A DNA stretch of 43,378 bases from a virus, in the UHGV virus genome UHGV-0125767. One strand, written 5' to 3'. Positions within the stretch are counted from its first letter, which is position 1. Every line of letters begins with the position of its first letter. Of this stretch, positions 18,964 to 21,905 are shown one piece after another. The position numbers and the translations under genes were made by a program. Under the pieces are notes generated by a model. The model was given only the letters and a program-made list of their open reading frames with translations, did not search any database and was not told the DNA's origin.

Positions 18964-19278
18964 ATGTGCTTTTCAAAAAGAATGAAACAATCAAGAGAAA
19001 AACAAGGTATGACTTTAGCTGAACTAGGAAGAAAAATCGGTAAAACTGAAGCTACTGTACAACGTTATGAAAGTGGAAATATCAAAAATCTTAAAAACGA
19101 TACTATCGAAAGCATAGCTACGGCATTAAATGTTAACCCTGCATTTTTGATGGGTTGGATAGATGAAAGTGATGAACAACCACAACATCGTGCAGCTCAT
19201 CTTGAAGCCGAATTAACAGATGATGAATGGCAACGTGTATTAGATTATGCAGATTATATAAGAAGTAAACGCAAATAA
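18964..19278 (+). CDS. CI-like repressor, XRE HTH only (no S24 peptidase domain)
   Basis: 104 aa; QGMTLAELGRKIGKTEATVQRYESGNIKN HTH_XRE. Confidence 0.7.
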   Translation: MCFSKRMKQSREKQGMTLAELGRKIGKTEATVQRYESGNIKNLKNDTIESIATALNVNPAFLMGWIDESDEQPQHRAAHLEAELTDDEWQRVLDYADYIRSKRK

Positions 19279-19289
19279 AGGGTGTTTTT

Positions 19290-19751
19290 ATGGGGTTATA
19301 TGAAAAAATGTTAATAGAACATGATTATATAGAAGTCAGAGAAACAAATGTTATGCCTAATAACTTACACGGCCTATGGTTAGGTGATTTAATTTTAATT
19401 AATCGAAACTTATCAGAAGTACGAAAAGCCGAAGTATTATACGAAGAACTAGCACATCATAAACTTACATATGGAAACATCTTAGATCAATCTAAAGATA
19501 TAAACCGCAAATTTGAAAATTACGCTAGGCGTTACGGATATGAATCTGCTCTACCTTTACACATCATTGTGGAAGCATATAACTATGGCATTAGTAACTT
19601 ATATGAACTAGCTGAATATGTTCAACTAAGCGAAGAATATATAGCAGAAATATTGAAACATTACAAAAATAAATATGGTATTGGAACTCACCACGGAGAA
19701 TACCTAATTACATTTGATCCGTTGAGGGTTTTTAAATATAAAGAAATATAA
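19290..19751 (+). CDS. ImmA/IrrE-family metalloprotease-like protein (putative anti-repressor protease)
   Basis: 153 aa immediately downstream of the XRE repressor; YEELAHHKLTYG degenerate HExxH-type motif. Confidence 0.4.
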   Translation: MGLYEKMLIEHDYIEVRETNVMPNNLHGLWLGDLILINRNLSEVRKAEVLYEELAHHKLTYGNILDQSKDINRKFENYARRYGYESALPLHIIVEAYNYGISNLYELAEYVQLSEEYIAEILKHYKNKYGIGTHHGEYLITFDPLRVFKYKEI

Positions 19752-19767: not shown

Positions 19768-20334
19768 ATGAAAAAGGTTTTATTTTTAATATTTGCAAGC
19801 TTATTAGTATTAGGCGCATGTGGACAAAACGGGGATAACTCGAATAAAGATGATAATAAAAAGTCTGAAAGTAAATCAGATAAGAAGTCGAATGGTCCGA
19901 AGAAATCAGATAGTAAGAATAAATCAAACAAAAATATTAATGACGATAAACAACAAGCTAGTTCAGATGATATTAACAATGATACTACTAGCAATAAATC
20001 TGAAAGCACATCTAAAAATGACAATAGCGAAACTCAAAGTGATAATGGTAATAATGAACGACCACAAGGTAAACAAACTCAAGCAACACAACAAAACAAC
20101 AATCAGCAACAAGCTAATAACAACCAACAAACACAAAATAATAATGGTTACATGACCCAATCAGAAATTGACGAATGGAATAGAACGAAAACAACTACTC
20201 ACAATGAGTCACAAATGGAGGAAGTACCGCAAAATAATCAAAATCAACGTGTAGATCGTAGAAGTTTTAACGAACCATTGCCACGTTCAACTACAAATGG
20301 AGTGGCAAATGAGGCGTGGGACGGAAAAATATAA
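19768..20334 (+). CDS. lipoprotein, low complexity (N/Q/S/K-rich)
   Basis: MKKVLFLIFASLLVLGAC: signal peptide plus LGAC lipobox; remainder N/Q/K/S/D rich. Confidence 0.7.
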   Translation: MKKVLFLIFASLLVLGACGQNGDNSNKDDNKKSESKSDKKSNGPKKSDSKNKSNKNINDDKQQASSDDINNDTTSNKSESTSKNDNSETQSDNGNNERPQGKQTQATQQNNNQQQANNNQQTQNNNGYMTQSEIDEWNRTKTTTHNESQMEEVPQNNQNQRVDRRSFNEPLPRSTTNGVANEAWDGKI

Positions 20335-20342
20335 TATTTCAT

Positions 20343-20380
20343 GGGTAGCTCGCCTACCCTTATTATTTTTTTACTTTTTT
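20343..20380 (+). terminator. rho-independent terminator
   Basis: GGGTAG-ctcgc-CTACCC stem-loop followed by TTATTATTTTTTTACTTTTTT. Confidence 0.6.
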
Positions 20381-20395
20381 AAGGGGTGATGAATT

Positions 20396-21765
20396 ATGAA
20401 CGTAGCTATTTACGTTCGTGTCAGGTCAGTACATTAGAACAAAAAGAGCACGGTTATTCTATTGAAGAACAAGAAAGAAAGCTCAAATCATTTTGCGAGA
20501 TAAACGACTGGAGTGTATCGGACGTATTTATCGACGCTGGTTTCTCTGGTGCTAAACGTGAGAGACCAGAGTTACAACGTATGATGAAAGATATTAAAAG
20601 ATTTGATTTAGTCTTAGTGTATAAGTTAGATAGACTTACACGTAATGTACGTGACTTATTGGACTTACTAGAGATATTTGAAAAGCATAATGTAGCGTTT
20701 AGAAGTGCGACTGAAGTTTATGATACTTCTACTGCTATGGGGCGACTGTTTGTTACATTAGTTGGTGCTATGGCAGAGTGGGAACGTGAAACAATTAGAG
20801 AACGTGTGATGATGGGTAAACGTGCAGCAATTAAGCAAGGTATGATACTTACACCACCACCCTTTTATTATGATCGTGTAGATAACACTTACATTCCTAA
20901 TGATTATAAAAAAGTAGTTTTATGGGCATACGACGAAGTGATGAAAGGTAATAGTTCAAAAGCTATAGCTAGAAAATTAAACGATTCAGATATACCACCT
21001 CCTAATGGTAAAAGATGGGAAGATAGAACAATAACAAGAGCGCTAAGAAGTCCTATAACAAGAGGTCATTATACTTGGGGAGATGTATTTATAGAAAACT
21101 CTCACGAGCCTATTATTACCGAAGAAATGTATCAACAAATAAAAGAAAGATTAGAAGAAAGAATCAACACTAAAATAGTAAGTCATGTATCAGTATTCAG
21201 AGGTAAATTTATTTGCCCAAGATGTGGTGGTACATTAACACTGAATACAACAACAAGAAAGAGAAAGAAAGGTTATGTTACCTATAAAACGTATTATTGC
21301 AACACATGTAAAGGTAAAAAGAAGAGTTTCGGTTTTGCAGAAAATGAAGCATTAAGAGTTTTTCATGATTACCTATCTAAATTAGACTTAGAAAAATACG
21401 AAGTAAAGACAAAACAAAAAGACGATGTCGTTACCATTGATATAGACAAAATCATGGAACAACGTAAAAGGTATCATAAATTATATGCTAAAGGGTTAAT
21501 GCAAGAAGAAGAATTATTTGAATTGATTAAAGAAACAGACGAAATAATCGCAGAATATGAAAAACAAAAAGAATTAGTGCCAAGCAAAACACTAGATGTA
21601 GATAAAATAAAAAATTTTAAAAATGTATTGTTGGAATCATGGGAGATATTCTCGTTAGAAGATAAAGCAGATTTTATTAAGATGGCTATTAAGTCTATCG
21701 ACATAGAATATGTAAAACTTAAAAACAGGCATTCTATTAAAATAAACGATATAGAATTTTATTAA
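20396..21765 (+). pseudogene. int: large serine recombinase (TP901-1-type integrase) with N-terminal frameshift. Native start MNVAIYVRV at 20396 behind an AAGGGG SD; a 5-bp tandem duplication (GTCAG GTCAG, ~20417-20426) shifts the frame after codon 9
   Basis: Frame A reads ATG AAC GTA GCT ATT TAC GTT CGT GTC AGG ... TAG. Frame B continues ..QVSTLEQKEHGYSIEEQ..YKLDRLTRNVRDLL... with the full resolvase domain, recombinase domain and zinc ribbon (CPRCGG...CNTC). Confidence 0.8.
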
Positions 21766-21769
21766 CTTA

Positions 21770-21817
21770 CGTACGGAAGTATAGACACTCTATTAATACT
21801 TAATGTGTATACTTCCG
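21770..21817. other. candidate attP: perfect 12-bp inverted repeat TACGGAAGTATA / TATACTTCCGTA with 24-bp spacer
   Basis: Located 5 bp after the integrase stop; geometry (~48 bp, IR arms around a central core) typical of serine-integrase attP. Confidence 0.4.
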
Positions 21818-21905
21818 TAAATTTATAAAGAAAGACCACACCCATTAAGGAATAGTCTTTAAAAAATATTATATCTTTTAATTGAAAATCAAAAATTATT
21901 TTTTA

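Follow-up and report, generated by a model that had tools for sequence, protein, structure and literature searches.

A conserved five-base tandem repeat interrupts the integrase gene of Staphylococcus epidermidis phages of the CNPH82/PH15 group and may be bypassed by a translational hop

The virus genome UHGV-0125767 (43,378 nt; the whole of this stretch is called the window below) comes from a temperate siphovirus of Staphylococcus epidermidis that belongs to the CNPH82/PH15 group, genus Rockefellervirus. The gene for its large serine integrase, int, is interrupted close to the 5′ end by a tandem repeat of five bases, GTCAG GTCAG, directly after the codons for MNVAIYVRV. These nine codons open a short open reading frame (ORF) in frame A, which starts at ATG 20396 (ATG AAC GTA GCT ATT TAC GTT CGT GTC AGG TCA GTA CAT TAG) and closes at the TAG of 20435-20437. 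The catalytic STLEQ segment is found in frame B, the frame of ATG 20389, within an ORF of 459 amino acids (aa) readable from GTG 20386 or ATG 20389 (MMNYERSYLRSCQVSTLEQ...). In this work we show that the interruption is near-universal in the group, that the gene is subject to strong purifying selection and that its carriers integrate site-specifically. The 5-base repeat belongs naturally to CNPH82/PH15-type int, in which it is conserved and maintained by selection; it is not damage. To the proposal that a +5 translational hop across the repeat makes the active integrase we give a probability of about 0.45, and recoding of any kind that joins frame A to frame B we consider slightly better than an even bet.

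The sequences concerned have been publicly available from 2006 on, and their annotations take ATG 20389 as the start with no remark on it. Neither the interruption nor recoding of a serine integrase was found described in the literature searched, including the main review of recoding (PMC5009743); the original paper on CNPH82 and PH15 (Daniel et al. 2007) lay outside the coverage.

Conservation of the interruption and use of the gene

Deletion of one GTCAG in silico gives MNVAIYVRVSTLEQ, which is the actual annotated N-terminus of the single-copy relative StB20 and which aligns from residue 2 with the catalytic domain of the TP901-1 integrase (3bvp; KVAIYTRVSTTNQ, E 2e-37). A preliminary description of this DNA had reported an AAGGGG Shine-Dalgarno (SD) sequence (20381-20386) ahead of ATG 20396, the MNVAIYVRV start running into an early TAG, and the doubled GTCAG exactly at the junction with the catalytic continuation in the other frame. 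All of this is seen as described, and both the repair by removal of one copy and the match to a TP901-1-family integrase came out as that description had anticipated.

The interruption recurs throughout the group. In an alignment of GenBank relatives the same GTCAGGTCAG is present in vB_SepS_48, BE20, CNPH82, PH15 and IME1348_01, StB20 of S. capitis being the only relative with a single copy, and the two-copy junction is found in phages 27, 48, 456, 459 and E72. Every S. epidermidis Rockefellervirus examined is interrupted, and these genomes were sequenced between 2006 and 2023 by different laboratories. Two copies are carried by nearly all of the 40 loci from IMG/VR and by 33 of the 35 contigs returned by a metagenome scan that permitted 0-16 bases between the flanks; the remaining two contigs have one copy and none has three. 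On the window's own integrase backbone, 55 unique interrupted alleles stand against 6 unique single-copy ones, and the 446-codon ORF after the junction is intact in all the interrupted alleles. At the protein level, the 90%-identity cluster starting MNYERSYLRSCQVSTLEQ holds 1065 sequences under the name 'recombinase family protein [Staphylococcus epidermidis]'.

A scan of genome contigs gave a single close locus, L007, an integrated prophage with two copies, in which a hybrid attachment (att) site comes after int, followed by the 3′ portion of a gene for a pyridine-nucleotide-disulfide oxidoreductase. Its contig (NZ_JBHLXP010000009.1) is labelled Rheinheimera tilapiae KCTC 23315; it contains one end of a staphylococcal prophage, an attL/attR junction (left and right prophage ends) of staphylococcal type and adjoining low-GC host genes, and is probably S. 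epidermidis DNA contaminating that assembly. Protein P0002, labelled Pseudomonas aeruginosa, looks like a mislabel of the same kind.

The preliminary description had suggested a phage unable to integrate or excise efficiently, or else an assembly artefact. Both suggestions are contradicted because related phages share the arrangement; five of these relatives lysogenised their host with site-specific integration, and the gene is under strong purifying selection. A sequencing or assembly error in the window has next to no chance of being the explanation, with the identical junction in more than 100 independent Sanger, Illumina and metagenome assemblies. Phase variation by copy number was also considered and rejected: the repeat occurs in one- or two-copy forms and never in three copies, even with 0-16 extra bases allowed.

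The integrase encoded behind the repeat has the domains of a large serine recombinase, in which a Resolvase catalytic domain and a Recombinase domain are accompanied by a zinc β-ribbon and a C-terminal coiled coil. From residue 14 of the frame-B product onwards Pfam recognizes Resolvase (PF00239, 1.9e-41) and Recombinase (PF07508, 4.5e-21), with Zn_ribbon_recom (PF13408) at 22.3 bits, slightly below the 25.3-bit cutoff; the PDB matches are 3bvp (TP901-1 integrase) and 4kis (A118 integrase), and the AlphaFold model contains the expected elements. Nonsynonymous (dN) and synonymous (dS) divergence, estimated by the Nei-Gojobori method for 34 unique interrupted alleles, were 0.019 and 0.30, a dN/dS ratio of 0.062; over the first 150 codons the ratio in the interrupted alleles was 0.024, and the single-copy alleles gave 0.069. 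A catalytic domain so constrained is, to judge by these substitutions, in use. The possibility of a pseudogene was rejected on the intact 446-codon ORFs of all alleles and the dN/dS of 0.06.

Fisarova et al. 2021 have reported that phages 27, 48, 456, 459 and E72 lysogenised S. epidermidis at one bacterial attachment site (attB), which lies within a gene for a FAD-dependent oxidoreductase, and have sequenced attL from a lysogen of phage 48 (PMC8125051). The phage attachment site (attP) of the window lies just downstream of int (Table 1). It is identical, together with the 100 nt downstream of it, to that of phage 48, and the int genes of the two phages differ by 3%. The attP core is TCTATTAATAC, as in phage 48; other S. 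epidermidis phages have been reported with a consensus containing ATATTAAT.

The frame-B-type N-terminus is not confined to one integrase. It is also found on integrases 84, 80, 69, 69 and 43% identical to that of the window (P0002, P0003, P0007, P0008 and P0042, respectively). These backbones share a module of about 50 nt, composed of the SD sequence, ATG-N-ATT-ATG and AACGTAGCTATTTACGTTCG-Y-GTCAGGT-N-AGT, which is joined to bodies that diverge directly after the Ser codon and which in one locus (L104) follows a different upstream hairpin. Monophyly of the interrupted alleles was rejected on neighbour-joining trees, in which single-copy alleles are interspersed among interrupted ones. Since the single-copy alleles are interspersed and the module sits on divergent bodies, the comparison points to recombination having moved the 5′ module between integrase backbones. 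About 110 other homologues examined, from staphylococci and other Bacillales, all start M-(K/N)-V-A-I-Y-x-R-V-S in one contiguous frame.

The alleles vary in two further respects. In some (L107, 1075-1120; L108, 3001-3050; L084, L122 and L134) the second repeat copy is GTGAG, so that frame A stops directly after AGG (MNVAIYVRVR and stop) and a frame-B GUG overlaps the frame-A UGA. This GUGA is a classic termination-reinitiation layout, which would start the integrase one residue before the catalytic Ser. At the other end of the gene, the single-copy int of StB20 (L006, NC_019915.1) is about 20 codons shorter than all others (426 against 446 codons after Val-Ser-Thr), and an interrupted-type integrase from a complete S. 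epidermidis genome (P0006) is truncated at 338 aa; therefore some int copies are decaying at the 3′ end.

Start codons and the frame-B N-terminus

The main rival to recoding is initiation at ATG 20389 (or GTG 20386), which would give a functional integrase, (M)NYERSYLRSCQVSTLEQ or (M)NYERSYLRSCQVSTLEQK, with the 12-13 residue frame-B peptide as a tolerated substitute for the usual N-terminus and the frame-A ORF as a competing upstream ORF that lowers expression. We regard this as unlikely, although it needs no recoding, the ORF from 20386/20389 being uninterrupted. ATG 20389 is moreover the start in all database annotations, it is retained in all interrupted alleles, and it is free of the RNA hairpin in which AUG 20396 is buried. 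The preliminary description had allowed for productive use of such a start in related phages with the same arrangement; the relatives do have the arrangement, but the evidence favours recoding over the upstream starts 20386/20389.

The first part of that evidence is the position of the SD sequence. Its core lies 9 nt from ATG 20396 in every allelic form (AAGGGG, AGGGAG, GGGAGG) and 2 nt from ATG 20389. Among the long ORFs of the window, 35 of 45 have GGAGG-type cores 6-9 nt from the candidate starts, with a mode of 9, so the 2-nt spacing falls outside the phage's own range, and the AU of ATG 20389 is itself within the extended GGUGAU pairing. It has been reported for S. aureus that ribosomes use extended SD pairing and prefer spacings 2-3 nt longer than those of E. 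coli, and that, of two starts competing in different frames, they take the optimally spaced codon (PMC13009471). Single-copy StB20-type alleles have ATG 20389 too, but in another frame than the integrase and not in use; it is therefore ancestral and not selected as an integrase start.

The second part concerns the product. Ile5, Tyr6, Arg8, Val9 and Ser10 are invariant in 53 canonical homologues (34-87% identity). The Ile-Tyr-x-Arg that never varies in serine recombinases is missing from the annotated product (MNYERSYLRSCQVS...), and Arg, Ser and Gln stand at the positions of Ile5, Tyr6 and Arg8, which bears out the earlier remark that a protein begun at ATG 20389 would be without the β1 strand and have Gln at the conserved Arg. 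Where homologues have a contiguous Tyr-x-Arg-x-Ser, the annotated ORF reads Ser-Cys-Gln-Val-Ser, and the motif appears only if +5 recoding is assumed. The equivalent Tyr and Arg of Tn3 resolvase are essential: the cleavage rate falls to 0.0002 of the parental value in the Y6A/F and R8K mutants and to less than 0.0001 in R8A, with no resolution in vivo (PMC2794168).

Substitutions among the alleles speak in the same sense. In frame-B codons 2-12 all changes are nonsynonymous (N2Y, N2H, S6R and C11R; four against no synonymous change), and those that follow, starting with the Val codon at 20425, are synonymous; Fisher's test gives p 0.015 as computed and 0.003 if a TTA to CTT double change is scored as synonymous. 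The CGT to CGC change at 20419, for instance, is silent for Arg8 of frame A and is the C11R of frame B; upstream of the gap, the changes in frame A are one synonymous and one conservative. Radical changes of this kind (N to Y or H, S to R, C to R) are not those of a selected structural element, and on this pattern the frame-B N-terminal peptide is evolving without protein-level constraint. In AlphaFold2 models built with the 53-homologue alignment, a strand is still drawn at residues 6-11 of the frame-B product, but the predicted local distance difference test score (pLDDT) averages 49 for its residues 1-10 against 90 for a canonical homologue (P0009); this modelled contrast is supportive only. 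Taken on the sequence comparisons, the annotated product is probably not the enzyme.

The initiation region is also structured. The predicted hairpin at 20395-20420 pairs AUG 20396 with the Arg8 codon (ΔG -10.5 kcal/mol, z -4.0; none of 200 shuffles folded equally well). It is present in the single-copy StB20 haplotype too and is specific to the StB20/interrupted haplotype (Tyr-Val-Arg-Val); haplotypes with Tyr-Cys-Arg-Val form a much weaker one, and in the backbone of 69% identity it loses its outermost pairs to the T-to-C change at 20419. As modelled, the hairpin probably keeps initiation at AUG 20396 low, and this throttle may operate independently of the repeat. Between 20386 and 20432, alleles from IMG/VR and GenBank on the window's own backbone have one variable site (20406, in the hairpin loop), against 51% of third positions polymorphic. 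This low diversity was considered as proof of dual coding and was downgraded, as the strong hairpin covers most of the segment and the module may be young.

A candidate +5 hop and its alternatives

According to our proposal, ribosomes would initiate at ATG 20396 and translate MNVAIYVRV, until peptidyl-tRNA-Val is on GUC 20420-22 in the P site with AGG, a putatively slow codon, in the A site. The tRNA-Val would then unpair, the mRNA would slide by 5 nt and the same tRNA would re-pair with GUN 20425-27, bases 20423-20427 specifying no amino acid. Decoding would resume at AGU, the codon of the catalytic Ser, and yield the canonical MNVAIYVRVSTLEQ (MNVAIYVRVSTLEQK). Ribosomes that do not hop would stop after 10-13 codons, which would keep integrase output low; output may rise when AGG decoding is limiting. 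GUC would be held by a weak mo5U-C wobble, and AGG would be read only through a U-G wobble by tRNA-Arg(UCU). A tandem duplication would, by its nature, create a matched codon pair and so provide low-level rescue from the moment of mutation.

The tRNA survey of S. aureus names tRNA-Val(mo5UAC) as the only Val tRNA and lists for Arg only ACG, CCG and UCU, with no tRNA-Arg(CCU) (PMC13443448); GUC, GUG and GUU would therefore all be cognate to one tRNA, and AGG would be read by wobble only. The window itself encodes no tRNA. All variants have GUC and AGG unchanged and a landing codon that is GUC, GUG or GUU, a combination of fixed take-off and variable landing codon that is compatible with a single Val tRNA. 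The first GUN 3′ of the take-off codon lies at +5. Several of the features expected of a bypass are present at the locus: take-off and cognate landing codons flank the gap, joining them gives MNVAIYVRVSTLEQ, identical to single-copy StB20, and the interrupted arrangement is conserved (55 unique alleles, at least 4 backbones) with purifying selection on both sides.

Several points weigh against a hop. It is read from the nucleotide sequence and not from a detected protein product. The take-off codon never varies, so that additional viral contigs searched for covariation of take-off and landing codons gave no proof of re-pairing. No conserved 3′ stimulatory structure was found, the sequences diverging right after the Ser codon and a 95-nt fold having a z of -1.66, and no Rfam family matched. 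AGG is only moderately rare in the phage (36 uses, 3.0 per 1000 codons), so that hopping could have a very low efficiency; in E. coli, bypassing occurs spontaneously at about 1e-4 to 1e-3. The tRNA set assumed here for S. epidermidis is the one documented in S. aureus. The presence of ATG 20389 in every interrupted allele also fits the role of a start codon, and the low diversity of the 5′ module may come in part from recent spread or from constraint by the hairpin.

Frame B is -1 relative to frame A, and a -1 frameshift would therefore also connect the two. With tRNA-Arg on AGG 20423-25 and GUC 20425-27 read next, it would give MNVAIYVRVRVSTLEQ (...VRVRVSTLEQK), a two-residue insertion that retains the R-V-S motif with Arg still two residues before Ser; some alleles have UGA directly after AGG, which is a classic stop context for shifting. 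We nevertheless hold this to be improbable. There is no slippery X XXY YYZ heptamer within 20396-20437, re-pairing from AGG to CAG matches at one of three positions, the codon after AGG is not conserved (UCA, UGA or UUA), and the insertion would put the invariant Tyr and Ile out of register. Nor is the downstream structure that usually goes with the heptamer seen in the 3′ sequence, which is not conserved between backbones and gave the fold score and Rfam result stated above.

It is still less probable, and in our view very doubtful, that the enzyme is made in two pieces, a frame-A β1 peptide of 10-13 residues and a separate frame-B or re-initiated body, translated from one mRNA and assembled non-covalently. 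Both ORFs are conserved, the position of the frame-A stop is flexible (10 or 13 codons) and the GTCAGGTGAGT alleles form the GUGA stop/start overlap; but in the commonest allele the junction offers no start codon, and a single 5-bp mutation would have had to give a working split enzyme at once. We know of no precedent among recombinases for an enzyme split into a β1 peptide and a body.

Just as little credence is given to a dead integrase, with integration effected by a helper recombinase or by rare DNA-level revertants that have lost one repeat: replication slippage can remove short tandem repeats, and the published junction sequencing of lysogens (a mer-int amplicon) may not cover the 5′ end of int, but two copies are found in integrated prophages and in the 1065-member S. 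epidermidis-named cluster, one- and two-copy forms are not mixed according to lifestyle, three-copy forms are absent, and a dead gene could not have a dN/dS of 0.02-0.06.

The features of the locus are collected in Table 1. The hairpin and T-rich block upstream of the SD sequence corresponds to a region for which Tao et al. 2010 described GGGTAGCCCGCCTACCCTTATTATTTTTTGCCAATTT as the conserved, sigma-H-dependent int promoter of staphylococcal prophages, CNPH82 and PH15 included, and placed the transcription start between GGGTAGCCCGCCTACCCTTATTATTTTTTGCCAATTT and the start codon (PMC2869324). The block is kept across L102, L041, L060, L107 and L108, which have unrelated upstream genes and integrases of down to 43% identity; it probably supplies the homology for transfer of the 5′ module between integrase genes. 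The ORF between the ImmA protease gene and int begins MKKVLFLIFASLLVLGAC... and continues in a long low-complexity stretch rich in Asn, Gln, Ser and Lys. Relatives have other genes in this slot (DUF5067 proteins, other hypotheticals), which is a variable cargo position within the lysogeny operon.

Table 1 Features of the int locus in the window
Feature	Position	Strand	Remarks
cI-like repressor	18964-19278	+	lysogeny operon
ImmA-type protease	19290-19751	+	lysogeny operon
Lipoprotein-like ORF	19768-20334	+	lysogeny operon; integrase gene next
Hairpin and T-rich region GGGTAGCTCGCCTACCC TTATTATTTTTTTACTTTTTT	20343-20380	+	terminator-like; matches sigma-H-dependent int promoter region
SD sequence AAGGGGTGAT	20381-20390	+	allelic forms AGGGAGTGAT, GGGAGGTGAT
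Frame-B ATG	20389-20391	+	start in GenBank annotations of related phages; product MNYERSYLRSCQVSTLEQ...; overlaps extended SD
Predicted 11-bp RNA hairpin UAUGAACGUAG-CUAU-UUACGUUCGUG	20395-20420	+	buries AUG 20396; last base is the first of the take-off codon
Frame-A short ORF MNVAIYVRVRSVH, then stop	20396-20437	+	codons 1-9 are the β1 strand with conserved Tyr and Arg of serine recombinases
Tandem repeat GTCAG GTCAG	20420-20429	+	shifts frame after MNVAIYVRV
Proposed take-off codon GTC	20420-20422		
Proposed slow A-site codon AGG	20423-20425		
Proposed landing codon GTC	20425-20427		GTG or GTT in some alleles
Integrase body (large serine)	20428-21765	+	from catalytic Ser codon AGT 20428-20430 to TAA 21763-21765
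attP, imperfect inverted repeat ACGGAAGTATAGACACTCTATTAATACTTAATGTGTATACTTCCGT	21773-21818	+	identical to phage 48; left half matches the published attL of an SE48 lysogen and the L007 prophage junction

Implications and comparison with known systems

Extended beyond the window, the proposal is that temperate phages of a whole S. epidermidis lineage, together with several unrelated backbones that have acquired the module of about 50 nt, need a natural hop of 5 nt at codon 9 for their active site; we put this forward tentatively. If it is true, the AGG codon and the sigma-H promoter would make the supply of integrase, and hence lysogenisation, a read-out of the translational and physiological state of the host. 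The case would be among the few natural, utilised short-range bypasses of bacteria and phages and, to our knowledge, the first in a site-specific recombinase, in a host that is tractable and medically relevant and with integration as a simple read-out.

There are also consequences for annotation. More than 1000 such integrases stand in the databases with ATG 20389 as start and an N-terminus in which two catalytic residues are missing, and cloning of the annotated ORF for genome engineering or for integrase/attB prediction probably yields an inactive enzyme. The sequence to express is the repaired one, with one GTCAG deleted and the start at ATG 20396. More generally, the relatives of a phage gene with an apparent frameshift should be checked before it is called an artefact or a pseudogene.

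Among natural systems the closest parallel is the candidate UUA-triggered bypass of 7-10 nt in the large terminase genes of Streptomyces phages Hau3 and StrepC.1 (Smith et al. 2013; Antonov et al. 2023, PMC10732093). There, as here, a short non-coding insert (7-10 nt in the terminases, 5 nt in int) breaks a highly conserved segment in a temperate phage, a codon that is slow in the host, or in the case of int is proposed to be so, stands at the gap, frameshifting would add residues inside an invariant motif, and a coupling of expression to host physiology has been proposed. The two cases differ in the gene, the phylum of the host and the trigger codon. The insert is found in 3 of 100 terminase genes, whereas the interrupted form is the majority in int; strong local RNA structures surround the terminase gap, whereas none is conserved 3′ of the int repeat; and the terminase bypass has experimental support, whereas that in int is proposed from sequence.

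Shorter-distance counterparts of the bypass in T4 gene 60 were predicted in the review of Atkins, which also treats hopping from one codon to a matching one across a slow A-site codon as established for synthetic and heterologous systems (PMC5009743). Gene 60 shares with the hop proposed for int the matched take-off and landing codons, a single P-site peptidyl-tRNA and the restoration of a conserved enzyme sequence. Its gap is 50 nt long (GGA at take-off and landing) against 5 nt in int, and it relies on an A-site stop codon, a take-off stem-loop and a nascent-peptide signal to reach an efficiency of about 50%; none of these is evident in int, where the nascent chain is of 9 residues. Hops of +5 and +6 were reportedly observed in E. 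coli constructs by Weiss et al. in 1987, and Gallant and Lindsley as well as Kane et al. are said to have described hops or bypassing over slow sense or stop codons in such constructs. These resemble the int case in the short distance between cognate codons and in the slow A-site codon, proposed for int, as promoter of the hop, but they are synthetic or heterologous, of low efficiency and not maintained by evolution.

Among integrases, the large serine enzymes of the TP901-1/A118 type have the same Resolvase, Recombinase and zinc-ribbon domains, an attP adjoining int and a host gene as target. All characterised members have a contiguous M-x-V-A-I-Y-x-R-V-S, whereas in the CNPH82/PH15 group these residues are divided from the body by a change of frame. 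Among recoded enzymes of mobile elements, the IS3 and IS1 transposases are likewise recombinases whose active form needs recoding and whose expression is kept low; they use -1 frameshifting at slippery heptamers with downstream structures to fuse two long ORFs, whereas in int the upstream ORF contributes 9 codons, there is no slippery site and a +5 shift is needed to restore the motif. Should the hop be true, int would join T4 gene 60, the byps of yeast mitochondria and the Streptomyces phage terminase candidates as a naturally selected example of bypassing over a short distance.

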